From NCBI GenBank assembly GCA_038209015.1, contig JBBQYC010000001.1:18974-82973 (forward strand): 64,000 nucleotides of DNA, written 5' to 3'. This stretch comes from Candidatus Saccharimonadales bacterium (lineage in GTDB: Bacteria > Patescibacteriota > Saccharimonadia > Saccharimonadales > JBBQYC01). Below are positions 39,639-62,636 of the stretch, piece after piece (positions within the stretch are counted from its first letter, which is position 1; each line of letters opens with the position of its first letter). The notes beneath the pieces are model-generated. The model worked only from the letters and a program-made list of their open reading frames with translations. It ran no database searches and had not been told where the DNA came from. The position numbers and the translations under genes were made by a program.

Positions 39639-41165
39639 ATGGATGATATTCGAGATAGATTTCGAGCAAACGGAGCGCCAAGTACTGGTGGACGCCGTGA
39701 TTTTGTAGGACCTTTGCGGCCCGAACGACCCTTGCAGCCACAACGTACGCCACAGCCCGCGCCAACACCCAAGCCTCAGTCGAATGCGCCATCCTCATGG
39801 ATGCAGCAACCGAGTCAGTCGCAACCTGCCATGAGTCCGCGACCGCGACCACGTCCGATAGCTGCTCAGCCAAATCAGTTTGGACCAATCCCGCAGCGAT
39901 CGGCCGCAGCTCCTGCTGCCGCCAAAGCGCGTAAAGCGCGTAAAAAAAGTAGGAAGAAGCCAATCATAGCCGTACTAGCTTTGCTTGTTTTATTAGCCGG
40001 CGGCGGTGGCGCATACGCATTCCTTGGTCGCACACCTACTGAACAAGCATCTCAAACTCCTGTGGCCGATACGGCAGGCGCATCGACAGCTGCTGCGGAT
40101 TCTGAACCGCAATTACAGCAGGGCACAATCAGGCTGATGGCTACCGGAACATTCGCTGCCTATGATTCCATCCACCAGATGGCAAGAAAAGGTGACAAAT
40201 ATGACTATCTACCTTTGATGCAAAACATCAAACCCGCGTTAGATACTGCTGATATCAGCGTCTGCCATCAGGAGACGTTAGCCGGTGGGGCCGATAAGGG
40301 AGTGAGCGGATATCCTGAATTCAATGCTCCTTTCGAGTGGTCGGCTGCTATGGCGGGTATCGGCTGTAGCGTAATGAACGTTGCTTCACTAAACACCAAT
40401 GACAAGGGCCAGGCAGCCATAGACGCTGCATTAAAATATTTTGAGAGTCAACAGTCTATCGTAGCCGTTTCTGGAGCAAACCGAAGCCAAGACGAACAAG
40501 ATAAAATTCGCTACTTCGAAGTGAAAGGGCTGCAGTTCGCCTATCTTTCCTACACGACCCAATCACTGAAAGCTCCCGCAAACAAATACAGCGTTAATGT
40601 TTACAGTGAGCCACTCGCTAAGAAACATATTACTGAAGCTCAAAAAAATGCAGATTTTGTGATTGTGGGAATGACATGGGGTGAACCTGATAAAGCTGAA
40701 GTCACAGCTCAGCAGAATCAAATCGCAGCGTTTTTAGCCAAGCAAGATGTCGATTTGGTAATCGGGAATGGACCTCATATCTTGCAGCCGGCAAAAGTAT
40801 TAGATGGTACCGAAGGGCACCAAACGCTGGTATGGTTTAGTCTTGGAAATGCAGTCAACTCACAGCTACCGATGGAAAATCTTATTGGCGGTATCGCAGT
40901 TGTTGATATAGATATTCAGACTCAAGATATGTTAAATCCTGGGCTCCTGCCTGTCTACCAGCACTATGAGTGGACCGCAGCTGAAAAGGCTAACAGTAAG
41001 TTTGATGCCCGTAAAAACTTTAGCTTGTATATGCTGGATAAAGCCGCGGAAGTACTCGCAAAATCCCAAAACGGGACTACCGTTGAAGCCCAGAACAAGC
41101 GGGTGAATGACATTATCACTCGTGATGCACCTATTAATGTCTTAAGCTCCAAAGACCTCGAATAA
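39639..41165 (+). CDS. CapA/PGA_cap family protein with Pro-rich N-terminal region and TM anchor
   Basis: Alignment-level resemblance to CapA (LMATGTFAAYD; ADISVCHQE; CSVMNVASLNTND; RYFEVKGLQFAYLSYT). Confidence 0.6.
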   Translation: MDDIRDRFRANGAPSTGGRRDFVGPLRPERPLQPQRTPQPAPTPKPQSNAPSSWMQQPSQSQPAMSPRPRPRPIAAQPNQFGPIPQRSAAAPAAAKARKARKKSRKKPIIAVLALLVLLAGGGGAYAFLGRTPTEQASQTPVADTAGASTAAADSEPQLQQGTIRLMATGTFAAYDSIHQMARKGDKYDYLPLMQNIKPALDTADISVCHQETLAGGADKGVSGYPEFNAPFEWSAAMAGIGCSVMNVASLNTNDKGQAAIDAALKYFESQQSIVAVSGANRSQDEQDKIRYFEVKGLQFAYLSYTTQSLKAPANKYSVNVYSEPLAKKHITEAQKNADFVIVGMTWGEPDKAEVTAQQNQIAAFLAKQDVDLVIGNGPHILQPAKVLDGTEGHQTLVWFSLGNAVNSQLPMENLIGGIAVVDIDIQTQDMLNPGLLPVYQHYEWTAAEKANSKFDARKNFSLYMLDKAAEVLAKSQNGTTVEAQNKRVNDIITRDAPINVLSSKDLE

Positions 41166-46035: not shown

Positions 46036-47790
46036 ATGGATGCGAAGGATGAGGTTAAACAGCGTTTGAGCATAGAAGACGTAATAGGCGAATACGTTCA
46101 GCTTAAGCGTGCCGGGCGTAATTTTAAGGGTTTGAGTCCGTTTGCAAACGAGAAAACACCGAGTTTTATTGTTAGTCCTGAGAAACAAATCTGGCATGAC
46201 TTCAGCACCAACCGTGGCGGCGATATATTTAGTTTTGTTATGCAGATGGAAGGGCTCGATTTTAAGGGCACACTTGAAATGCTAGCCCGCAAAGCTGGTG
46301 TTGAACTCGAACAATACCGGAGCGATACCAGCAACACACAGGTCAAAGAACGGCTGTATGCTGCGCTTGAACTTGCGACTAAGTTCTACCAAGTTCAATT
46401 CAAAAATAATAAAATAGCCCTGGATTATGTATTTAGGAATCGTCAATTCACCAAACAAGTTGTATTGGATTTTCGTCTAGGCTACGCTCCCAATACGGGT
46501 AATGCTCTCGGTAAGTTTTTAGTCGATAAAGGGTTTACGACCAAGGAATTGCAGCAAGCCGGTTTATTATCTCGGACTTCACGAGCCGGCGACATGTTCC
46601 GAAATCGTCTGATGGTGCCGCTCATGGACGGGCAGGGTCGCGTAATCGGATTTACGGCCCGTTTGCTGGCCGATGATCCGAATGCTCCGAAATACATCAA
46701 CACGCCGCAGACGATGTTATATGACAAAAGTCGGCACGTTTTTGGACTGCACCTCGCTAAAGAGTCGATGCGTAAAGAAAAATTCACCGTTGTTGTTGAG
46801 GGAAACTTAGATGTTATTGCGAGTCATCAGGTAGATGTAAAAAATGTCGTGGCCACCGCTGGTACGGCGATGACCGAACAACATCTGAAAACCGTCGGAC
46901 GGTTCGCGGATGACGTGCGACTAAGCTTTGATAGTGACAGCGCTGGCCTGGCGGCAACCGAACGGGCGATTCCTATAGCTAGTAAAGTCGGGGTCACCCT
47001 CAGTATCATTACCTTACCCGGCGCAAAAGACCCCGATGAACTAATCAAACAAGATGTTGGTGCCTGGAAAAAGGCATTAGAAAAGCGGCAGTACGCTATG
47101 GATTGGCTGATAAGTCATTATGCACATCAATTAGATTTAGACAGTGGGCAGGGAAAGCGGAGTTTTAGCGACGCAATGTTGCCGACATTACGCGAGCTAA
47201 GTGATCCGGTAGAACAGGACCACTACTTAACTGAAGTCGCCAAGCGCATGCAAGTTAGTCCAGCGGCTCTCAAGGATAAACTGCAAACTGATACACCTCA
47301 ACCAAAACTGAAAAAACGAACTCCATCAGATAACATGGTAAGCCAGCAGCAACTTGAACATGCCAAGGTCCAAGATCATTTTATGTCTATGATGCTGATG
47401 AGACCGCATCTGCGGCACATGATAGATATTGTCGATAGCTCAATGCTGCTGCAAGAACAAGCCCAGCAGTTGTTGGATTTTTTGATAGGTCATCCAGATT
47501 TTGAAGGTGATATGCGTCAGGTACCGGTGTTGCAAAGTATTAGTGACTATGTCAAAATACTGTCATTACAGTACGAGGCACTGTTTTCTAAGCTCGATGA
47601 AGTCGAAGGACGCTATGAAGCTCGCCGACTCAGAGCCCGCCTCATTGAACTATATGTAAAATCCAAAAAAGCACAGTTGGCCCAAGCATTGGACTCAGCT
47701 GATGATGAAACAGCCCAAAAACTCCTCACAAGAGTAAAAGAACTCGATCAATTACTAAAGGTTAGTCAAGGAAAGGACACCCATGCCTAA
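46036..47790 (+). CDS. dnaG: DNA primase
   Basis: CHC2 zinc finger region ([11 protein letters not shown]) and TOPRIM motifs (EGNLDV; DSDSAG). Confidence 0.9.
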
Positions 47791-48904
47791 GAAGAAAGCA
47801 GCGAAAGCTGTCGAAGCGGAAACGAAAGCAAACCCAGCAGATATTAAAGAGCAACTGCTAAAACGAGCAAAAAAAGACAAGAAAATATCTCAAAAAGATA
47901 TTCTCACCGCTCTGCCAGAAAACTCTGATAACGCGGAAGCGCTTGATGAGCTGTATACGGACCTAGCAGATTTGAATATTGACGTCGTTGAAGGCAAGGC
48001 CGGCAAAGATGACGGCTGGTCAAATGAAGACGACGATGAAGTTACCATAGACGAAAACACCTATCTTGATGATATTGCAGACGACTCGGTTCGTTTGTAC
48101 TTGCGTGAAATCGGTAAAATCCCACTACTGACAGCTGAAGAAGAATTGGCGCTGGCTCAAAAAGTTGTATCCGGCGACAAGCGCGCAAAAGACCAAATGG
48201 CAGAGGCTAATATGCGGCTGGTGGTAAGTATTGCAAAGCGTTACGTTGGACGTGGACTTGACCTGCTGGATTTGATTCAAGAGGGGAACACTGGCTTACT
48301 CCGCGCTGTTGAAAAGTTTGATCCGGATAAAGGATTTAAGTTCAGTACCTATGCAACATGGTGGATTCGCCAGGCTATCACGCGTGCGATTGCCGACCAA
48401 GCACGAACTATTCGTATCCCGGTGCACATGGTAGAAACAATCAACAAACTACTACGAACACAGCGCCGTCTGACTCAGGATCTCAACCGCGAACCAACCA
48501 ATGAAGAAATCGCAGCCGAAATGGAGATTGAAGTCGATAAAGTTGAACACATCATGAAGATTAAGCAAGATATTTCTAGTCTTGATGCCAGTGTTCGTGA
48601 TGACGAAGAAGATTCTGTATTGGCAGATTTCATCGAAGATGAAGATACAATTACGCCTGAAGAATCGGCGACTGGTCAGCTGCTAAAAGAACACGTCAAA
48701 GAAATGCTGAGCGCACTGACAGAACGTGAGCAAAAAATATTAAAGCTCCGTTTTGGTCTTGAGGACGGTAAAAGCCATACACTTGAAGAAGTCGGGCAGG
48801 AGTTCATGGTAACCCGCGAACGAATTCGTCAGATAGAAGCGAAAGCACTTGCTAAACTGCGCAAACACAAAGACAGCCGCAAACTCCACGACTATATTAA
48901 ATAA
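47783..48904 (+). CDS. rpoD: RNA polymerase sigma factor RpoD (primary sigma-70)
   Basis: Regions 1.2-4 ([16 protein letters not shown]; [18 protein letters not shown]; rpoD box). 8-nt overlap with dnaG. Confidence 0.9.
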
Positions 48905-48968: not shown

Positions 48969-50444
48969 ATGGCAGTGAGTAAAGACATCATTATTATTGG
49001 TGCCGGGTTTGGTGGATTAAGCGCAGCAGCGTATTTGGCGCGCGCCGGACATAATGTAACGGTGCTTGAGAAAAACGATCGCCCGGGTGGGCGAGCGATG
49101 GTATTTTCTGCGCGCGGTTACGTCTTTGATCAAGGTCCATCCTGGTACCTTATGCCGGATGTGTTTGATGAATTCTTCGCTGATTTTGAAAAAGTAACCA
49201 GCGACTACTATGAGCTAGAAACACTTGAGCCATCATATAAAGTCTTTGAGAAGGATGATTCCTACAATGTAACGACTGCACCGTCAGTATTTACATTATT
49301 CGAAAAACTAGAACCCGGTTCCACCAAGTCAATTACTCGATTACTGGAAAAAACCAAATCAGAGTACGATGCGGTAAGAGCCGGGCTACTGATAAACTCG
49401 CAATTGAGCCCTCTCAGTTTGTTAAGAGAACCAAAGGTTCGAAAACTTCTGAAAAACACCGAATTAGTTCGATCATATCATTCACGTATTTCTAAATATG
49501 CAAAAACCGACAAGCTCCAACATATTCTAGAATTTATGACGGTATTTTTAGGCGGGAGTCCCGGTAATGTTCCCGCAATGTATAGTTTGCTTACTCATGT
49601 CGATCTAGGTTTGGGTGTGAGGTATCCAGCCGGCGGTATCGGGAGTGTGGTATCGGCATTTGTTAGGCTTGTCCAAGAGCAGGGAGCACGTATCCGCTAC
49701 GAATCACCGGTTGCTCGCATTACGACTCATAACGGTAAAACAACCGGGGTTATATTGGAAAACGGCACAGAATTACCAGCTGATATAGTGGTCGCTAATG
49801 CAGATTACCATCATGTTGAAACAACTATGCTCGGTAGTAAAGATAGAACATACGATGAAACGTACTGGCGCAAAAAAACTGTTTCGCCATCAGGTCTTCT
49901 GATATATCTTGGCGTGAATAAAAAAATACCAAGTCTGCAGCATCACAATTTGTTTTTTGATACAGACTGGGACCATCACTTCAGAGAAGTATTCAATCGT
50001 AAAAAATGGTCGTCGGAACCATTATTTTATGTATGCATGCCATCCCGGAGTGATAAAACTGTCGCTCCAAAAGGGAAAGAAAACTTGTTTGTGTTGGCAC
50101 CTATGGCTAGTGGAGTCCAACCAACTCAGACCGAAATTGATACAACCGTCAAGAGCATTTTAAGGCGAATTGAACGGCATAGTGGTACAGTTTTTCAGGA
50201 TAAAATCGAGGTACAAGAAGTTCGAACACAAGCATACTTCGAGGAAGCATTTAATGCGTACCAAGGTAATGCATTTGGGCTTGCTCATACACTCAGTCAA
50301 TCGGGGCCATTACGGCCACGTATGAAAAGTAAAAAAGTAGCCGGACTGTACTATGTTGGCCAGTACACAAACCCAGGAACTGGAGTACCACTGGTTGTAC
50401 TGTCCGGCAAAGCTGTGAGTAATCTGATTCAAACTCATGAGTAA
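48969..50444 (+). CDS. crtN: phytoene/diapophytoene desaturase family FAD oxidoreductase (CrtI/CrtN-like)
   Basis: IIIGAGFGGLSAA...GGR dinucleotide motif. Pattern DQGPSWYLMPDVF as in CrtN/CrtI. Confidence 0.75.
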   Translation: MAVSKDIIIIGAGFGGLSAAAYLARAGHNVTVLEKNDRPGGRAMVFSARGYVFDQGPSWYLMPDVFDEFFADFEKVTSDYYELETLEPSYKVFEKDDSYNVTTAPSVFTLFEKLEPGSTKSITRLLEKTKSEYDAVRAGLLINSQLSPLSLLREPKVRKLLKNTELVRSYHSRISKYAKTDKLQHILEFMTVFLGGSPGNVPAMYSLLTHVDLGLGVRYPAGGIGSVVSAFVRLVQEQGARIRYESPVARITTHNGKTTGVILENGTELPADIVVANADYHHVETTMLGSKDRTYDETYWRKKTVSPSGLLIYLGVNKKIPSLQHHNLFFDTDWDHHFREVFNRKKWSSEPLFYVCMPSRSDKTVAPKGKENLFVLAPMASGVQPTQTEIDTTVKSILRRIERHSGTVFQDKIEVQEVRTQAYFEEAFNAYQGNAFGLAHTLSQSGPLRPRMKSKKVAGLYYVGQYTNPGTGVPLVVLSGKAVSNLIQTHE

Positions 50445-51285
50445 GCAGCTTGAAAAACAAATATTTCGCAACGGTAGTACAACGTACTACTGGAGCAGTG
50501 TATTTTTCCCAAAACAGGAGCGGTCTGATATTTTTCGTTTGTATAGTTTTGTTCGGGTTGCTGATGATTACGTAGATGCAATCCCGCAGCAAAAAGAACA
50601 GTTTAACGATCTGGTGCGGTTATGGCAAACGGTTTCAGCAGATACGACATATACACTTACGCCAAATGATGGTGACTCAATCGATTTGAGAGTGGTCAAA
50701 AATATAGTTTATTTGCAGCGCAATAAAGGCATTAAAAAAGAGTGGGTCGAGGCATTCATAAAAGCTATGCAATCCGATACTAAGCTGCATACATATAAAA
50801 CGATCGACGATTCACTGGCATATGTATATGGCTCTGCCGAGGTCATCGGTTTAATGATGTGCCAGGTTCTCGGTATTCCAAAGCAAGCTCACAAAGCAGC
50901 TATGATGCAGGGGAGGGCAATGCAGTGGATTAATTTTATTCGTGATATTGACGAAGACAATCGACTTGGCCGCCAGTATTTTCCGCAATTCAGTTTAAAT
51001 GAGCACGGCCTCGAAAATCTTACCTCACCTGATCAGGAAGAACGTATAAATACATTTATTCGCTCGGAAATTACACGCTACAGTGAATGGCAAGAGCGGG
51101 CTTACGAAGGCTACAGATATATCCCAAGACGTTACCAAATACCTATTGCGACAGCAGCCGATATGTACAACTGGACTGCGCATCAGATTAATAAAAATCC
51201 ATCAATCGTTTTTACTAAAAAACTTAAACCAAGTCGGTTTCGAGTCCTCATTACCGTCTTAAAACATAGTTTGCGAGCTATATAG
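50437..51285 (+). CDS. crtM: squalene/phytoene synthase family (CrtM/CrtB-like)
   Basis: YSFVRVADDYVD and IRDIDEDNRLGRQYFP Asp-rich motifs. 8-nt overlap with the desaturase. Confidence 0.75.
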   Translation: MSKQLEKQIFRNGSTTYYWSSVFFPKQERSDIFRLYSFVRVADDYVDAIPQQKEQFNDLVRLWQTVSADTTYTLTPNDGDSIDLRVVKNIVYLQRNKGIKKEWVEAFIKAMQSDTKLHTYKTIDDSLAYVYGSAEVIGLMMCQVLGIPKQAHKAAMMQGRAMQWINFIRDIDEDNRLGRQYFPQFSLNEHGLENLTSPDQEERINTFIRSEITRYSEWQERAYEGYRYIPRRYQIPIATAADMYNWTAHQINKNPSIVFTKKLKPSRFRVLITVLKHSLRAI

Positions 51286-51963: not shown

Positions 51964-53073
51964 ATGACTAAAAAAATTGATACTGCAAACCCGGATATTG
52001 CCGTTTTTACGCGCAAACTTAACGAATTTAAACAGTTGATAGACGCTGATATTTCCACTTACAGCCGTCAGATTACTAAAAACACAAGAAAACAGTACGG
52101 CCCATATGCCCAGATTGAAATAGACGCATTCTTGAGTATTTTAGGACGCGGTGGTAAACGCATTCGCGGAGCACTCGTCATGCTGGGTTATGAGATGAGT
52201 GGTGGTACGAACAAAGCTATGATTATTGAAGCAGCTCGGGTGGTCGAAATGATTCATGCGTATATTCTAATCATTGATGATATCCAGGACCGTTCTAGGA
52301 TACGCCGCGGAGGTCCGGCTGCACATATGCTTTTGAGCGAATACCATAGTCAGCACAGCCTATCTAGTAATAGTGATCACTTTGGTATTTCTATTGCTAT
52401 GAACAGTGCACTTGCCGGAGCCCACGCTGCTCAAATGCTACTCACTAACTTGGACGTCGATCAGCAGCTGCGCCTGAATACAATAGCTATACTCAACCGA
52501 ACTATGCTGGTAACGGCACACGGACAGACCAATGACATCATGAACGAGGTGTTAGCAGAAGTGAGCCAAAAAGATATCGAAACAGTTTTAGAGTGGAAGA
52601 CTGCGCACTATACGTTTTTAAATCCACTGCACATGGGTATGGTGCTAGCTGGTGCGGATTGTGATGCTACTGATGCCATAAGCAACTATGCAATTCATGC
52701 CGGGAAAGCATTTCAAATTACCGACGATATCCTAGGTGTTTTTGGGAATGAATTTGAAAGTGGCAAATCACCACTGGATGATATACGCGAAGGCAAGCGT
52801 ACCGTGTTGACTGTCAATGCTCTTGAAAACACTGATGACGGGAATAAAAACTTTCTTATTCAAATGTTAGGGAACGACCATTTAACACGCGCTGAATTTG
52901 ACCGTTGCAAAGACATAATTATAGAAGCCGGGTCGCTCGATTATGCAAAGAAACGAGCCATACATCACATTAATCAGGCTGTTGAATCGCTGGATGGTGT
53001 GGACTATTGGTCAGAGGACGGATTGGCATTTTTACGCGGCTTAGCAGTATCACTGCTCAATCGTCATAGCTAG
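51964..53073 (+). CDS. polyprenyl diphosphate synthase (FPP/GGPP synthase family)
   Basis: First DDxxD (LIIDDIQD) and second (FQITDDILG) Asp-rich motifs. Confidence 0.8.
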   Translation: MTKKIDTANPDIAVFTRKLNEFKQLIDADISTYSRQITKNTRKQYGPYAQIEIDAFLSILGRGGKRIRGALVMLGYEMSGGTNKAMIIEAARVVEMIHAYILIIDDIQDRSRIRRGGPAAHMLLSEYHSQHSLSSNSDHFGISIAMNSALAGAHAAQMLLTNLDVDQQLRLNTIAILNRTMLVTAHGQTNDIMNEVLAEVSQKDIETVLEWKTAHYTFLNPLHMGMVLAGADCDATDAISNYAIHAGKAFQITDDILGVFGNEFESGKSPLDDIREGKRTVLTVNALENTDDGNKNFLIQMLGNDHLTRAEFDRCKDIIIEAGSLDYAKKRAIHHINQAVESLDGVDYWSEDGLAFLRGLAVSLLNRHS

Positions 53074-53094: not shown

Positions 53095-54255
53095 GTGTTT
53101 AACTTTGCGTTGATGAATAGAGATACGGAAATATTTGAACAGCTGCCCGACTTCGAGCGGGGTATTGAAATTGAACAACCGCCAGTTAAATCGGTAACTC
53201 TTGAAGAGGTGCAAACCTTGCTGCGCGAACGTCATAAGTTAGGCTCACGTCAGGGTCATATTCTGACATTAGAGCAAGAATGTACTCTCGCTCAAGCTAT
53301 AGAAAAAGGTTCGGCGGCATCTGAATGGCTAACTGATGAAACGATGGAGTTACCTGAAGAAGAGACTGAAGTGCTCCAAAAGTGGGTGAAAGCACGAGAA
53401 GAATCAGTCGCTGAATTCATTGCATCCAATCAAGGACTCGTGACCATGATAGCCAAGCGTTACATGAACCGAGGTTTACCGTTAGAAGATCTCATACAAG
53501 AAGGAAATATTGGCCTATTAACTGCGGTCGAGAAATACGACTGGAGGCGAGGGTTTCGTTTCAATACAATGGCGTTTTGGTGGATTCGCCAAGCAATTCC
53601 TAGAAAATTAACCCTTGCTGGCAATGTAAATATCCCACCCCGTGCAAATGATTTGAAACGCCAGGTAAAACGATTTATGGCTGATTATCCAACCAGCAGC
53701 CAGCAGGATGCCTATGAGTTTTTAGGTTTATCTGACTCTGACCAGGAATCTGTAGAGGCGGCTTTAGCAATGAGCAGTCTGGCATCACTGAACAAGCGAG
53801 TCGGTGATGACCTTTTCGGTAGTGAGCAGCAAGATTTTGTTGCAGACAGCAGTGCGTCAGTTGAACACATGGTGACTGATCTATACATGAATGATGAGAT
53901 TAATAGCTTACTCCATACTTTAGGCGAAAAACACAGGCAAGCGATTATTTTGCGTTTTGGTCTAGGAGAAGAACAAGGCAGAAGTTACGAGGCAGCGGCT
54001 GAAGTAATGGGGGTGGCGGCTAGCACGTTCAAGGGTATTGTAAACTCGGCACTGGATCAGCTCCAGGAAAAAGCCAAACAGGACCCTGATTTTACACCAG
54101 AAAAAAAGACAGAGCCGGTCTCGATGTACGAAATATCAGCCGATGAAGCTATGCGTATGGTACGTCAGTACAGTGAACTACTCGGATATTCTGCCCAGCA
54201 GATAGCTAGTATGCTGGATATCCCTCTGGAAGATGTTGAGAACTACTTAAGCTAA
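53095..54255 (+). CDS. sigma-70 family RNA polymerase sigma factor (second RpoD-like paralog)
   Basis: Region 2 (DLIQEGNIGLLTAVEKYD...FWWIRQAI) and region 4 HTH present. Confidence 0.75.
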   Translation: MFNFALMNRDTEIFEQLPDFERGIEIEQPPVKSVTLEEVQTLLRERHKLGSRQGHILTLEQECTLAQAIEKGSAASEWLTDETMELPEEETEVLQKWVKAREESVAEFIASNQGLVTMIAKRYMNRGLPLEDLIQEGNIGLLTAVEKYDWRRGFRFNTMAFWWIRQAIPRKLTLAGNVNIPPRANDLKRQVKRFMADYPTSSQQDAYEFLGLSDSDQESVEAALAMSSLASLNKRVGDDLFGSEQQDFVADSSASVEHMVTDLYMNDEINSLLHTLGEKHRQAIILRFGLGEEQGRSYEAAAEVMGVAASTFKGIVNSALDQLQEKAKQDPDFTPEKKTEPVSMYEISADEAMRMVRQYSELLGYSAQQIASMLDIPLEDVENYLS

Positions 54256-57497: not shown

Positions 57498-58055
57498 CTA
57501 GCGCTGTTTTCGAGTGATCAAACGCTTTGCAGCGATTGCTGCGGCGCCTAATGCTAGAGCGGCTCCACCTACAACCGCCTCAGGTGAAATATCTGTACTC
57601 GTTTCAGCAAGTTCCTTGGGTTGGGATTGTACCTCTACTGTTGTTTCGGACTGAGATTCATCAAAAGCAGGGTTATGTACGATAACCCCTTCATCAGAAA
57701 TTTCAGTTCCCAGTGTCGCGGGTGGCGCTGACTCTACGGTGCTATCTTGGGTGGAATTATCAGATTGGGTGACTGGTTGTTCTGGGTCAACAATCGTTAC
57801 TGACTCGGTTGTGGGTGTTGTGTCAGGAGGAGGCACGTCATCTGGGCGTTCTTCTACATCAGGACCCTCGTCTTTATGCGCCGGATCAACATATTCATCA
57901 CTACTGGTGGTGTTCTCATTTGAAAACGCTTCTGGCTGGTTATTAACTTGTAGTTCGTCGTTGTTTTGATTGTTTGTTGTTTGTGCAGATTCCATATATG
58001 TAACCTTGATTAATGTACATATCATAACAAAATAACCACCAAATGTCAATACCAA
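57498..58055 (-). CDS. acidic Ser/Thr/Pro/Asp/Glu-rich low-complexity protein with C-terminal hydrophobic anchor and basic tail (no LPXTG)
   Basis: ORF. C-terminus VVGGAALALGAAAIAAKRLITRKQR. The likely true start is the internal MESAQ. Confidence 0.45.
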   Translation of the reverse strand: MVLTFGGYFVMICTLIKVTYMESAQTTNNQNNDELQVNNQPEAFSNENTTSSDEYVDPAHKDEGPDVEERPDDVPPPDTTPTTESVTIVDPEQPVTQSDNSTQDSTVESAPPATLGTEISDEGVIVHNPAFDESQSETTVEVQSQPKELAETSTDISPEAVVGGAALALGAAAIAAKRLITRKQR

Positions 58056-58077
58056 AGTTATTATGCTTTATTGACAC

Positions 58078-59994
58078 TTGGGAAAATTCCGCATACCATA
58101 CAGTAAAGAACACATACATACTATGAGCATCATACATACAGTATTACGTCCCATACAATCGATTTTCGGATTTTTGGGGCGCCTATCTCTTAAGATAAAA
58201 CTAGTGTTAACCGCCTTACTGGTGCTTGCAGGAGCCGCTTTCGTAGCTTTTGCATTTATATTGCCAGGTACACCGCCAGCCAGTAATCACGTTATTTTCT
58301 TATATAGTTCTGAAAACGGCTACAGTGAGACACAGTATGGCTTTGAACCGGTTAGGTACCCAACGGTGCTATATGACAATGGACTTTTTGTCTGTGGTTC
58401 TTCACATGTGGGTGAGGGAACGCCTAAGCAGCGTTATTTGGATAAGAAAACGCAGCAAACTTTCTTTGAGGAGCTTGGGGCTTCTGGCTTCCTTGGCCTG
58501 AAGAGCGGTGATTATTCTGAAGATTCAGAATTCCCCCAACCACTTGATTTAGAAACGACTATTTATGCAAATAAAGACGATCAACCCATTCACGTTACGT
58601 ATAGCAGCCCTGTATCACCTAAAAAACTTTCTAAAACAACAGCGTATATACAGACATTCTGCAACAAAGAGATACGAGACGATTTCCATACTGGCACCTA
58701 TCTGGTTCGAGCTATTAAGCTCGATGACGCCAAACAAGCTGGCCAGGAGTACCGTACCGTCCAAGTCGATCAGGCAACTGCTGATATGTTCGTGCGGACC
58801 AATGTTATTGAACCACAACAGTCAAAAACCGTAGACCAAAAATCATATGAAGAATTTCAATCAACCTTCAAAGCCGATACCGCGATACTTGCATATGAAG
58901 ACAAGCTGTTTCTCGTAAATATAACTCCTGCACTGCATCCATACGAACTAGCAGGCGGAAATATAGCTCATGCTCGCTCAGCAGATGTGGCAGGTGACAG
59001 CACTAACAAGCAAGTACTCGCTGATGCGACCCCGCACGTAGAATTCATTTGGCTTCATGGATCAAACCAAGCCCCTCCATCCGATGCCACTACTATTTTG
59101 CGTAGAACATCTCAGCGCGTCCGCGACTGGTATATGAGCAAAGCCGGCAAGACCCTGAAGTTTGGGGGAAACCGAGTATTAAAATCATCTCAAACAATCG
59201 GGCAGATCGAAACGTGTCCGAGCGAAACGGACTGCCAAGGCGATAAGTCCTTAGCGGCCTACTATAATTTGAAAAAAAGCGTATACCCCGATCTCACCGG
59301 ACGACAGGTCGTAGTGTTATACCAAGGAACACACGACCAATGTAACGGCTGGGGTGCGCCGAATAGCGGCGATTATGGTGGGGGGAGTTTGAACTCTGCG
59401 GGAACCTCGAACGGAGGCTTTGGTCTACTCAATATTATAGCTTGCAATTGGGATAATGGTAGGGAAAAGGTGGCAGGTCATGAGCTGGGGCATGCCTTAG
59501 GTTCAACTCATTGGTGCCAAGATAAAAATATTATGGTCGGTTCGGGATGTTCCAGTTCCGCTCGCTCCGACGGACTTCGCTATGCGAATATGAATGATAC
59601 GCAAAAAAACGCATTTTTGGGCAGTGAATTCTTTAAAAAGTCGAGTGATAGATTGTTACCAGGCCAACGTCTCTACTCTGGCGGGGTGATGCATTCAATA
59701 GATGGGAGTTACAGGCTTATTGTTCAACCAACAGATGGAAATGTCGTAGTTTACAGAAATGACAATGCATATAAGTGGGATTCAACCACGTACAATCCAG
59801 GGAACCCTCACATTATATTTGAGTTTGCAGAGGACGGTAACGTGCATGCATCAACAGATTATAGTTATGGCTGCCGCTCTGGTCCAAGGCCTGGGGCTAA
59901 TCGACTTATTATGCAACATGACGGTAATCTTGTCGCATATGATGCGGCGAATCAAGCAAAATGGGCAACCTCCTGGAATTATTGGTACTGTTAA
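58078..59994 (+). CDS. membrane-anchored metzincin-type zinc metalloprotease fused to C-terminal bulb-type (B-)lectin domain, paralog 1
   Basis: HELGHALGSTH (HExxHxxGxxH). C-terminal QxDxNxVxY-type repeats (VQPTDGNVVVY; MQHDGNLVAY). N-terminal signal-anchor TM. The first ATG is at 58123 (the track start at 58078 is TTG). Confidence 0.65.
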   Translation: MGKFRIPYSKEHIHTMSIIHTVLRPIQSIFGFLGRLSLKIKLVLTALLVLAGAAFVAFAFILPGTPPASNHVIFLYSSENGYSETQYGFEPVRYPTVLYDNGLFVCGSSHVGEGTPKQRYLDKKTQQTFFEELGASGFLGLKSGDYSEDSEFPQPLDLETTIYANKDDQPIHVTYSSPVSPKKLSKTTAYIQTFCNKEIRDDFHTGTYLVRAIKLDDAKQAGQEYRTVQVDQATADMFVRTNVIEPQQSKTVDQKSYEEFQSTFKADTAILAYEDKLFLVNITPALHPYELAGGNIAHARSADVAGDSTNKQVLADATPHVEFIWLHGSNQAPPSDATTILRRTSQRVRDWYMSKAGKTLKFGGNRVLKSSQTIGQIETCPSETDCQGDKSLAAYYNLKKSVYPDLTGRQVVVLYQGTHDQCNGWGAPNSGDYGGGSLNSAGTSNGGFGLLNIIACNWDNGREKVAGHELGHALGSTHWCQDKNIMVGSGCSSSARSDGLRYANMNDTQKNAFLGSEFFKKSSDRLLPGQRLYSGGVMHSIDGSYRLIVQPTDGNVVVYRNDNAYKWDSTTYNPGNPHIIFEFAEDGNVHASTDYSYGCRSGPRPGANRLIMQHDGNLVAYDAANQAKWATSWNYWYC

Positions 59995-60114
59995 TTCGAG
60001 ATTTTCCGTAAAAATCTATAAATAAGATCCAAGGTAATTCATTACCATTCTAAGTTGACAAACCGTATTGTATAAACATATGCTTCAATCAATACATTAT
60101 ATAAGGATTAAGCT

Positions 60115-62019
60115 ATGGCTGGCCGCACATTAAAACTCAAAACAAAAACAAAAACTTCTGTAAAAAAGTCTAATCGCAAAAAACAGCAAAGTAAATTGAA
60201 AGTATTCTTCAATATACTAAAACAAAGGAGGGCAATCCTTTTTGCGGTGTTTTTTGCAATCATTGGAGTAACCATACTGTATCTGGTGAATGCCCAGAAT
60301 ACGCCGAATACATATAATGAAGTAGCCTTTCTCTATAGCGAAGGCCATGGACATGAAGAATCACAATTTGACCTTAAACCGGTTGATTATCCATTAGTTT
60401 TATATAAGGATGGTTTATTGGTTTGTTCAGCACACGGTCATGGCAGTGAAGAATCCAGCCCAACACAGGCACAGCTTAACAAAGAGCAAATGAATGAGTT
60501 TCTATCTGCTGTCAGAACTAATGGGCTAGATAGTTTAGAAGAAAAACATTATGAATCAGCTGGTGGCCCGGCGGATCCTATAGCGTTATATACGACTGTT
60601 TTTGCCGACTTTGGCAGGAGCCAAAAATACGTAACATATAGTTCTGGTGATAGGCCAAGTGGGCTGAGTAGCATTACTTCATTTACGCACAATTACTGTG
60701 ATAATAAGGCAGTGGAAGCCTATGATGCCGACACCTATACTGTAGACAGTGTCATTATAGATAATCAAACGAATTCTAGAGTAACAGGACTCGCTAAAGC
60801 GCGAGAGGTGATTGGTGCCAAACTGAGCCGTAATGACCGCTTAGCTCAGGCTATCCGCAGCATAGACAACGCTAATAAAAAGCAGGCACAAAGTGTCAAC
60901 CGGCAGACTGCAAGTGAGATAAAAAAAGCGCTCAAAGGTAAGTCGGAGGGCGTCATGACGATAGAAGGTGCTGAAGTGCTAGTGCGGCTTACTCCGTTAC
61001 TAAGACCTTACGAATTAAAAGGGCAGAGTAATGTCAGCATAGAGAATGAGTCAGACAAAGTGTATGCCGCGACGGCAAAAAAAGTCGAATTTGTATGGTT
61101 CTATGCGTCCAATCAATCGTTACAAAGCGGATACACGACTAAATTAAACGGTACATCACAAAAAGTGCGCAGCTGGTACCGTAGTCAGGTGGGTGAAGAT
61201 GTTTTACATGCTAAGAACTACACCAAAAAAGGGGCAAAAACAGTAGCTCAATATGAAACCTGCCCGAGTGGTAAAAACTGTGCTGGTGATAAATTACTTG
61301 CTGCGTTTTATAATGTGCAGGCAGAGCTGGGGACACTAACTGATGCCCAGGTTGTCGTAATGTTTCAGGGCAGTGAAACCACCTGCAAAGGCTGGGGGAG
61401 TGTCGCTGGGTCGACCGCTAATAACTCTGTAACTGCAGCCAAATCAGGTACTGGTATAGTCAATGTGACGGGTTGTACGTGGGATGATGGACGTGAGAAA
61501 ATAGCAGGTCATGAGTTTGGCCATGGCCTAGGATCGGCACATTCATGCTACAACTATAATATTATGGCTAATAGTTCTTGCGCGACTACAGGCAATGGCT
61601 TACCACATTCAATACTGCACAGTACTCAGAAATCATCATGGGCAAATTACAGTCAGTTTTTCGGCGGAGTGCGTACTTACCTCAACGGCAACGAACATAT
61701 GTACCAAGGCCATACAACATATTCACCGCAGAAAAAATATCGATTAGTCATGCAAGGGGATGGTAACCTGGTCATATACAGCAGCAATAATTCAGCGGTA
61801 TGGAGTGCTAGAACTGGTGGTAACAGCGGTGCATTCTCTATATTCCAGACAGATGGCAATTTGGTACTCAGAAAACCAAGCGGTAAATATTGTCATGCTG
61901 CAAGCAACGGCAAGGGCGGGTATCGTCTCAATATGCAAGATGATGGCAACTTGGTTATCTACAAATCTGACCTAAAGACTGCCGTGTGGTCACGATACAA
62001 TGGTTGGTACTGCAACTAG
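60115..62019 (+). CDS. membrane-anchored metzincin-type zinc metalloprotease fused to C-terminal bulb-type lectin domain, paralog 2
   Basis: HEFGHGLGSAH. Three lectin repeats (MQGDGNLVIY; FQTDGNLVL; MQDDGNLVIY). Basic N-terminus + TM. Confidence 0.65.
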   Translation: MAGRTLKLKTKTKTSVKKSNRKKQQSKLKVFFNILKQRRAILFAVFFAIIGVTILYLVNAQNTPNTYNEVAFLYSEGHGHEESQFDLKPVDYPLVLYKDGLLVCSAHGHGSEESSPTQAQLNKEQMNEFLSAVRTNGLDSLEEKHYESAGGPADPIALYTTVFADFGRSQKYVTYSSGDRPSGLSSITSFTHNYCDNKAVEAYDADTYTVDSVIIDNQTNSRVTGLAKAREVIGAKLSRNDRLAQAIRSIDNANKKQAQSVNRQTASEIKKALKGKSEGVMTIEGAEVLVRLTPLLRPYELKGQSNVSIENESDKVYAATAKKVEFVWFYASNQSLQSGYTTKLNGTSQKVRSWYRSQVGEDVLHAKNYTKKGAKTVAQYETCPSGKNCAGDKLLAAFYNVQAELGTLTDAQVVVMFQGSETTCKGWGSVAGSTANNSVTAAKSGTGIVNVTGCTWDDGREKIAGHEFGHGLGSAHSCYNYNIMANSSCATTGNGLPHSILHSTQKSSWANYSQFFGGVRTYLNGNEHMYQGHTTYSPQKKYRLVMQGDGNLVIYSSNNSAVWSARTGGNSGAFSIFQTDGNLVLRKPSGKYCHAASNGKGGYRLNMQDDGNLVIYKSDLKTAVWSRYNGWYCN

Positions 62020-62072: not shown

Positions 62073-62636
62073 ATGAAGTATTTCATTGGTGTCCTAGTTA
62101 TATTGTTCTTCTTTATCGTTGGCGGCCTGTTGTTTTTTAACCGAGACAAAGCGCCAGAGGTTCTTAGTGATGCCAAAGATAATTCACTTGCACAACATGC
62201 CGAGAACTCTGACAGCAGCGTGAGCTGGACTAAAAAGGGTAAAATCGTTGCAAATGAAGACTTTTACGCAGTACGCGTTACCGTTACTTCATCTCAGCGC
62301 ACTATTGAGGTCCTAAAAGGGTATAACGAGACGCTTGTTAGACGAGAAACCTACCCAAACAATAAAGAGGCGTATAGCGTACTTCTGAAGGCTCTAGACA
62401 ATCTAGGATATAGCAAGACGAAAGATGCTACATATAGTGAAGCAGAAGGTGCATGCCCAACGGGATACCGCTATCTTTATAAGCTTGAATCAAGCATGGA
62501 GACGCCAGTAGATTCGTGGTCTACGTCATGTTCAACCAGGGATGGAACTTTTGATGGTACGGCTAGTACCGTGCGCCGTTTATTCCAGGAGCAAATTAGC
62601 GACTTCAACGAAATTACCAAACCAGCAAAGTTCTAA
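62073..62636 (+). CDS. hypothetical membrane-anchored/secreted protein (N-terminal TM)
   Basis: ORF with N-terminal hydrophobic helix YFIGVLVILFFFIVGGLLFF. Confidence 0.5.
   Translation: MKYFIGVLVILFFFIVGGLLFFNRDKAPEVLSDAKDNSLAQHAENSDSSVSWTKKGKIVANEDFYAVRVTVTSSQRTIEVLKGYNETLVRRETYPNNKEAYSVLLKALDNLGYSKTKDATYSEAEGACPTGYRYLYKLESSMETPVDSWSTSCSTRDGTFDGTASTVRRLFQEQISDFNEITKPAKF

Follow-up and report, generated by a model that had tools for sequence, protein, structure and literature searches.

We found that two tandem genes, par1 and par2, encode members of a rare protein family and that each joins a family-specific N-terminal module, a metzincin-type predicted zinc protease and a C-terminal bulb-type lectin in one polypeptide chain. 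The genes lie in a 64,000-nucleotide stretch of a Candidatus Saccharimonadales genome (contig JBBQYC010000001.1, positions 18,974 to 82,973), which we analyzed as a whole and refer to as the window. We are highly confident of the domain identities. Both genes are on the forward strand, par1 at 58123..59994 and par2 at 60115..62019, and their products of 623 and 634 amino acids align over their full length with 32% identity (E 3e-107). Judged by this alignment they are tandem paralogues, with a similarity far beyond chance; an earlier reading of the DNA letters (the original prediction) had likewise described two tandem paralogous open reading frames of moderate identity, and the zinc motifs and all six lectin motifs that it quoted are present as written. 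The two genes bear on the question of how ultra-small Saccharibacteria and other episymbionts of the candidate phyla radiation (CPR) recognize and exploit their hosts. Their products combine a lectin fold of the mannose/rhamnose type with a protease that looks intact, and are candidates, open to expression, for proteins that act on a partner surface under the guidance of glycans. Independent of function, they define a metzincin family that is rare, lacks annotation and brings an N-terminal module of its own.

The metzincin-like catalytic domain maps to 59029..59637 in par1 and to 61075..61665 in par2 (both +). It had been described as the end of a single ~450-residue domain closing with the zinc motif. 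The motif is indeed there, but the region comprises two parts: the N-domain spans residues ~61-320, and the catalytic domain covers the next ~200 residues (~321-517). The motif sits in an active-site helix, with the Met-turn segment and then the C-terminal helix coming after it. Metzincins are defined by the sequence HEXXHXXGXXH and a Met-turn, and OgpA has been described as an M11/M12-like metzincin (PMC7518263). Both paralogues match the metzincin consensus HEXXHXXGXXH/D, par1 with HELGHALGSTH (59479-59511) and a following NIM as Met-turn candidate, and par2 with HEFGHGLGSAH (His466 to His476, 61510-61542) and Met484 (61564-61566). The motif HExxHxxGxxH occurs in nearly all of the ~100 family members that bear a catalytic domain. 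In an alignment of 64 sequences His466, Glu467 and His470 are invariant, and His476, Met484 and three cysteines (Cys383, Cys389 and Cys489) are at least 90% conserved. Met484, part of the NIM segment, is located 8 residues past the third histidine, which is the matrixin spacing, and represents a candidate for the Met-turn residue; its segment aligns with the MMP-20 sequence HEFGHALGLAHSTDPSALM, opposite ALM.

We used the 64-sequence alignment to build an AlphaFold2 model of par2 (pLDDT 82.3, pTM 0.82), which superseded an earlier, unusable model based on 6 sequences (pLDDT 53). The catalytic domain in this model has the metzincin order of secondary structure elements and agrees with the metzincin fold of a five-stranded sheet, an active-site helix and a C-terminal helix. 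Structurally it is matched best by OgpA and Amuc_1438, two metzincins specific for glycoproteins; CpaA and the pseudo-protease ADAM22 are also found among the matches of the predicted fold. Adamalysins carry an aspartate right after the third zinc histidine (HExxHxxGxxHD). In contrast, the corresponding residue is a serine in par2, a tryptophan in par1 and a threonine in the family consensus, with Ser, Trp, Tyr and Thr seen among the members, and the His-to-Met spacing (+8) is matrixin-like. Direct reading of par1 and par2 revealed no PRCG motif in either protein, and with it no cysteine switch of the PRCGxPD type. Motif, conserved methionine and predicted fold agree in supporting a metzincin-type domain and a predicted zinc protease, as originally claimed, with the HExxH region modeled in a protease fold and the zinc-site residues intact.

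The C-terminal domain (59638..59991 in par1; residues 518-634, 61666..62016, in par2; both +) was compared with proteins of known structure. A phmmer search of the PDB returned putidacin L1 and garlic lectin (E 5e-16) and pyocin L1 (E 2e-15), and in Foldseek the modeled domain superimposes on monomeric bulb lectins with TM scores of 0.77-0.82, in agreement with a beta-prism II fold. When a viral fold library was searched by structure, the lectin domain alone was matched. The NCBIfam profile LLB_putidacin (NF033557) is matched over part of its length, with 73.2 bits for par2 and 40.6 bits for par1 (E 1.9e-10), relative to a cut-off of 275. The PDB and fold matches indicate that the domain is a bulb-type/MMBL lectin and a predicted carbohydrate binder, and the proposed beta-prism II assignment has support from both sequence and fold. 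The accompanying statement that bulb-type lectins are rare in bacteria appears overstated, as our search gave 155 matches at E<=1e-5, many of them from Streptomyces, Burkholderia and soil metagenomes. The sugar motifs of par2 are, from N to C terminus, QGDGNLVIY, QTDGNLVLR and QDDGNLVIY, of which the first and third are canonical and the second is near-canonical with an arginine replacing the tyrosine. Those of par1 are PTDGNVVVY, AEDGNVHAS and QHDGNLVAY. Here, only motif 3 is canonical; motif 2 is degenerate and contains a 3-residue deletion, and motif 1, listed before as the complete repeat VQPTDGNVVVY, has these letters but aligns a proline at the position of the canonical glutamine. The single canonical pocket suggests that the glycan specificity of par1 may be altered or narrowed. 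Partly degenerate QxDxNxVxY sites are common among bulb-type lectins and compatible with membership in this group.

The N-terminus of par2 (60115..60294, +) consists of a Lys/Arg-rich tail and a hydrophobic helix. Residues 1-39 contain 15 Lys/Arg and zero acidic residues and are followed by an uncharged run of 19 residues, the helix at residues 40-58 (60232-60288), and then by the sequence VNA/QN; AlphaFold2 places the helix at 36-60. In par1 a short basic n-region precedes a helix at residues 27-47 (58201..58263, +; numbered from the ATG), with an uncharged run of 21 residues and a mean Kyte-Doolittle hydrophobicity of 2.65 over 19 residues. The N-termini of relatives are alike, with charges of +9 to +17 and uncharged runs of 19-24 residues. 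Clearly most of the family members that we examined have small residues at positions -3/-1 behind the helix (VNA/Q, SNA/I, SSA/R, VNA/R, SKA/S), and a cleaved signal peptide is thus as possible as an anchor; par1 itself shows no clear -3/-1 signal-peptidase site. The sequences are therefore equally compatible with a type II signal anchor and with a long Gram-positive-type signal peptide, and of the earlier label 'membrane-anchored' we can retain the basic tail and the hydrophobic run of 19-21 residues but not the anchoring as such. The conserved cysteine pairs fit an extracellular protein.

Between this helix and the catalytic domain, par2 contains a family-specific N-domain of about 250 residues (60295..61074, +), with a predicted alpha/beta part at residues ~61-215 and a small second alpha/beta unit plus linker at 216-320, near the end of which an Ala-Ala pair (residues 317-318) is conserved. 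The N-domains of the window proteins have no match in Pfam and no detectable sequence relative in the PDB, and 8 of 64 relatives weakly match DUF6438. The first half of the domain, together with the same tail and helix, also precedes CAP/PR-1 domains (PF00188) in five proteins (P0080, P0089, P0093, P0094 and P0101), and in some homologues the catalytic domain stands alone behind a signal peptide. By this distribution the N-domain can be separated from the rest as a module and would serve as a stalk/anchor or else as a prodomain. A CAP-domain gene is also located near the orthologous locus in L004, described below.

We defined the wider family by an exhaustive HMMER profile search of 1.84 billion proteins, counting representatives at E<=1e-3. 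The search yielded 131 representatives, 44 of them at E<=1e-30. Word-index searches with the full protein or an N-terminal profile returned 4 relatives only, so that the family becomes visible by exhaustive search, and pattern scans of genomes and of metagenomes found 2 loci each. The family is rare and previously undescribed, and it has an N-module of its own that is barely seen by current Pfam models. Tail, helix, N-domain and catalytic domain form a constant scaffold across its members, and the C-terminal tip varies: we found B_lectin in 9 of 64 sequences, including arrays with 10 motifs, ricin B in 6/64 and LGFP in 3/64, and further tips comprise FG-GAP, fn3, beta/gamma-crystallin-like, PG_binding_1 and PQQ-like repeats. 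In a second subfamily, two contigs share the locus EF-Tu ... DnaJ-like ... protease ... rpsJ. Its proteases P0004 (L009, 2183-4513) and P0008 (carried on a contig of JGI 3300071358) are 49% identical in the scaffold, and the former ends in a PQQ-like and the latter in a B-lectin tip. With different tips at the same locus, a tip has been exchanged at an orthologous position.

We next compared these proteins to known systems that combine lectins and peptidases or use bulb-type lectins for targeting. Albusin B of Ruminococcus albus 7 is a bacteriocin composed of a B-lectin and a peptidase M15 (PMC6240691). Like par1 and par2, it comes from a bacterium of the Gram-positive type and has a single bulb-type lectin fused with a zinc peptidase. 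However, its order is lectin first and then peptidase, the reverse of ours; its enzyme is an M15 cell-wall D-Ala-D-Ala-type peptidase rather than a metzincin endopeptidase, and no M15 match is found in Pfam for par1 or par2; and it has neither an N-terminal anchor nor an N-domain. LlpA, pyocin L1 and putidacin L1 are the closest solved sequence relatives of the par1/par2 lectin (E 5e-16 to 2e-15), and the QxDxNxVxY pockets of LlpA-type lectins bind D-rhamnose or mannose. These bacteriocins contain two MMBL domains along with a C-terminal peptide, have no enzyme and target BamA, whereas in par1 and par2 one MMBL domain ends a protease. Because of the single MMBL domain and a NCBIfam score of 73 against the required 275, we rejected membership in the LlpA-type bacteriocins. 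UmbA4 (PDB 9oee) differs in that its protease-like domain has a trypsin fold and acts as a docking module, in that its teichuronic-acid contacts are on a beta-propeller and not on the bulb lectin, and in that UmbA belongs to a toxin particle built from several proteins.

An architectural parallel outside the family is a secreted 334-residue protein from an Acidobacteria metagenome-assembled genome (MAG; CANKJK010000003.1, L002 7650-8654, +), in which a Peptidase_M10 domain (50.4 bits) precedes one C-terminal B-lectin with three QxDxNxVxY-type motifs. Unlike par1 and par2, this short protein has a true matrixin-family domain (above gathering) and an ordinary signal peptide and lacks the N-domain; the fusion occurred independently, in a different phylum. 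The fusion of a lectin to a peptidase is thus not new in principle, as albusin B and the Acidobacteria protein illustrate. What is new is that a divergent group of metzincins has an N-module of its own, apparently resides in Saccharimonadales and swaps its tips, and that a tandem pair differs in the integrity of its lectins. In the literature we found nothing joining Saccharibacteria or Patescibacteria with B_lectin, metzincin or Reprolysin.

Several features bear on the origin of the tandem pair. Per region, par2 and par1 are 44% identical in the catalytic domain, 37% in the lectin and 32% in the N-domain, and the corresponding values for par2 and its orthologues are 59-68%, 55-66% and 34-42%. 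par2 is the orthologue of genes that are present as one copy in the related genomes L001, L003 (GCA_038330375.1) and L004/L005, whereas the window has two. A neighbor-joining tree of the N-terminal and catalytic regions (438 columns, 200 bootstraps) groups par2 with these single-copy orthologues and places par1 as their sister; the five-member clade was recovered in 200/200 replicates, and par1 and par2 as sisters in 19/200. par1 is the additional copy and has diverged further; given this topology, it is either an old duplicate that the other genomes have lost or one that arose recently and evolves fast. An identical 623-residue par1 product (P0005, ATG start) is called on three short Logan metagenome contigs, which match the window at 57867-60302 with 99.96-100% identity and therefore represent an independent assembly of the tandem arrangement; an exact copy of par2 was not found on record. 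The mechanical par1 reading frame opens at TTG 58078 (638 residues). We consider ATG 58123 the likelier start, because the TTG overlaps a promoter-like TTGACA (58071-58076) and because gene callers chose the ATG on the metagenome copies. By consensus match only, promoter-like elements precede the par1 ATG (TTGACA-17-TACCAT, 58071..58099, +) and par2 (TTGACA-18-TATGCT, 60055..60084, +), the latter gene with a candidate ribosome-binding site AAGGA at about 60104. Sites of the TTGACA type are not enriched over shuffled sequences.

The genes are located in an ordinary chromosome segment that encodes ValRS, TsaD, a Mur ligase, GroEL, ArgRS, DnaG, RpoD, PolA and a HAD hydrolase, and because of these housekeeping flanks we rejected a mobile element or a defence island. 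A pattern scan of species-representative genomes identified an orthologue in a Candidatus Saccharimonadales MAG (L001) with 44% identity. The PolA proteins of the two genomes are 64% identical, and by this measure the protease-lectin diverges faster than housekeeping proteins. Synteny extends over L001, L003 and L004/L005, with the order PolA ... acidic protein (-), protease-lectin, 187-residue transmembrane protein and HAD hydrolase. The acidic, proline-rich protein is encoded divergently from par1 (57498..57995, -) and is syntenic in all four genomes of the subfamily (orthologues at L004 7304-7864, L003 7226-7876 and L001 4416-5036). It contains repeated 'PAHxxEGPD'-like motifs, and the window copy ends with ELAETS, a hydrophobic stretch and a basic tail. 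The invariant C-terminal ELAET[G/S/D] sequence resembles the LAxTG sorting signal of class E sortases; an N-terminal signal peptide was detected in 0/4 orthologues. Downstream of par2 lies the gene for the 187-residue protein with an N-terminal transmembrane helix (62073..62636, +), which is syntenic in this subfamily only. Its orthologues of 187-190 residues (L004 9988-10551, L003 10983-11552, L001 7421-7993) share invariant Cys128, Cys153, 'WSTSC' and 'GxCPxGxR', and the protein has no Pfam or PDB match. A relationship to the N-domain (hhalign probability 2%) or to a CpaB-like chaperone was rejected as unsupported. We also rejected a functional tie of the two flanking genes to the proteases as unproven; in the second subfamily the protease gene lies at another locus, where both are missing.

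We propose that par1 and par2 are exported modular metzincin endopeptidases that dock through their lectin on a partner surface. For this statement in its entirety, with export topology, activity, specificity, substrate and surface all being part of the proposal, we see an even chance, and for its direction toward a partner a chance that is even at best. The basic tail and the single hydrophobic helix would direct Sec export and leave the protein anchored, or released by signal peptidase. Outside the cell, His466, His470 and His476 would bind zinc, with Glu467 acting as catalytic base and Met484 positioned beneath the site. Through its lectin, in which two to three pockets of the mannose/rhamnose type are intact, par2 would dock on a glycan-bearing surface and become concentrated locally on protein substrates there. 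par1 is a duplicate that has diverged while keeping its catalytic site intact. The target would be the glycopolymer- or glycoprotein-coated envelope of a host or neighboring cell, and the purpose surface remodeling, attachment or peptide acquisition. The producers are obligate episymbionts with minimal biosynthesis. Since this is so, and since the scaffold stays constant while tips swap, we consider such an envelope the most likely target. The original prediction had suggested that glycosylated structures on the surface of another cell are targeted, which we regard as plausible. Tips of the adhesin/lectin type that are rapidly exchanged likewise favor a partner or host surface.

Precedents from published work also favor a partner surface. 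Rhamnose and mannose inhibit the binding of TM7x to its host, the responsible lectins being unidentified (PMC11623550). UmbA proteins, which contain bulb lectins, direct Streptomyces toxins to wall glycopolymers that are specific to a species, and UmbA4, which contains such a lectin, recognizes a teichuronic-acid polymer on Streptomyces, with the contacts mapped on the beta-propeller (PMC13274773). A broader reading appears to us unlikely. Here, CPR episymbionts would use a polymorphic partner-targeting protease system, in which exchangeable lectin or adhesin tips aim the constant scaffold at different host envelopes, and host range would depend in part on the type of module and on duplications like that of par1 and par2. 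In the sharpest version of this reading the enzyme would be a glycan-dependent, O-glycoprotein-specific protease like OgpA and Amuc_1438 and would cleave host surface proteins carrying mannose or rhamnose where the cells attach.

Some of our results weigh against a lectin-guided protease acting on a partner. At the level of the domains, peptidase and lectin profiles had been suggested as checks. Reprolysin_5 (PF13688) matches par1 with 20.5 and par2 with 22.8 bits, below the gathering score of 27, and Peptidase_M10 (PF00413) with 14.3-14.7 bits against a gathering score of 24 and in the zinc-motif segment only. Peptidase models thus do match, but in contrast to M12B/M11-like metzincins (adamalysins/ADAMs, OgpA, fragilysin) both paralogues stay below every Pfam peptidase threshold. 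Among the relatives, 46 of 64 match Reprolysin_5, and P0006, P0007, P0012, P0013, P0015, P0016 and P0017 exceed its gathering score (27.2-33.2 bits), which by these scores puts the family at the edge of this model. For Pfam B_lectin (PF01453, gathering 32.4), par2 falls just short with 30.7 bits and par1 has no match; here the structural check by AlphaFold and Foldseek was positive. At the level of biology, the locus is situated among housekeeping genes with no obvious host-interaction island. Taxonomy is established for the Saccharimonadales loci only, and two other members are found on contigs that measure about 0.73-0.78 Mb, as small CPR genomes may do. LGFP and PG_binding_1 are classic self-wall retention modules, and their presence as tips in relatives fits a cis-acting as well as a trans-acting surface protease.

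This last point leads to a serious rival, a self-directed surface protease, which we rate as possible though somewhat unlikely. The lectin would hold the enzyme in the producer's own glycopolymer wall, where it would mature or turn over pilins, adhesins or the acidic neighbor with its LAET[G/S/D] tail. The family's LGFP and PG_binding_1 modules, the syntenic housekeeping setting and the wall-sorted appearance of the conserved divergent neighbor all agree with such a role. However, the protein would be retained by an N-terminal anchor in any case, many tips resemble those of adhesins or lectins (ricin B, FG-GAP, fn3 and arrays of several B-lectins), the neighbors are not linked to the second subfamily, and rapid tip exchange with fast divergence (44% versus 64% for PolA) looks more like a response to a variable external target. 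The structural resemblance to the glycoprotein-specific OgpA and Amuc_1438, and also to CpaA, would suit a nutritional exoprotease that degrades free or particulate environmental glycoproteins, with the lectin as substrate binder in the manner of carbohydrate-binding modules on mucinases and no specific partner cell involved. CPR bacteria depend on external amino acids, which speaks for this explanation, and still we find it quite unlikely.

Very unlikely, in our estimate, is a bacteriocin-like role, in which a released lectin-guided protease would harm competitors as do albusin B, LlpA/pyocin L and the umbrella-toxin lectins, with the downstream transmembrane protein conferring immunity. A lectin closest to those of LlpA/pyocin L1 and UmbA4, the precedent of albusin B for lectin plus peptidase, a possible signal-peptidase site and the conserved small transmembrane protein directly downstream would fit this role. 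Yet there is one MMBL domain and no tandem, the LLB_putidacin score lies far from its cut-off, LlpA acts on BamA of Gram-negative bacteria, and the downstream gene is absent beside the second subfamily and has no detectable homologue. In addition, we know of no general endopeptidase that serves as a bacteriocin warhead. Finally, the protease fold could be a mere scaffold in a catalytically dead protein that acts purely as a lectin adhesin. Nothing specific points to this, apart from the existence of pseudo-proteases such as ADAM22 among the ADAMs, and the zinc ligands, the catalytic glutamate and the methionine are conserved in both paralogues and in the family; we give the idea hardly any credence.

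Elsewhere in the window we noted a set of carotenoid/isoprenoid-type genes that is unexpected in a reduced genome (48969-53073, +), comprising an amine-oxidase/desaturase-like gene (48969-50444), a squalene/phytoene synthase (50437-51285) and a polyprenyl synthetase (51964-53073, +), with an AAA_17 kinase-like gene (-) between the latter two. Two sigma-70 family genes are found at 53095-54255 (+) and 47783-48904 (+). One is RpoD-like with regions 1.1-4, and the other, directly upstream of polA, has long N- and C-terminal extensions and no match to region 3. A PGA_cap protein of the poly-gamma-glutamate capsule synthesis type is encoded at 39639-41165 (+).

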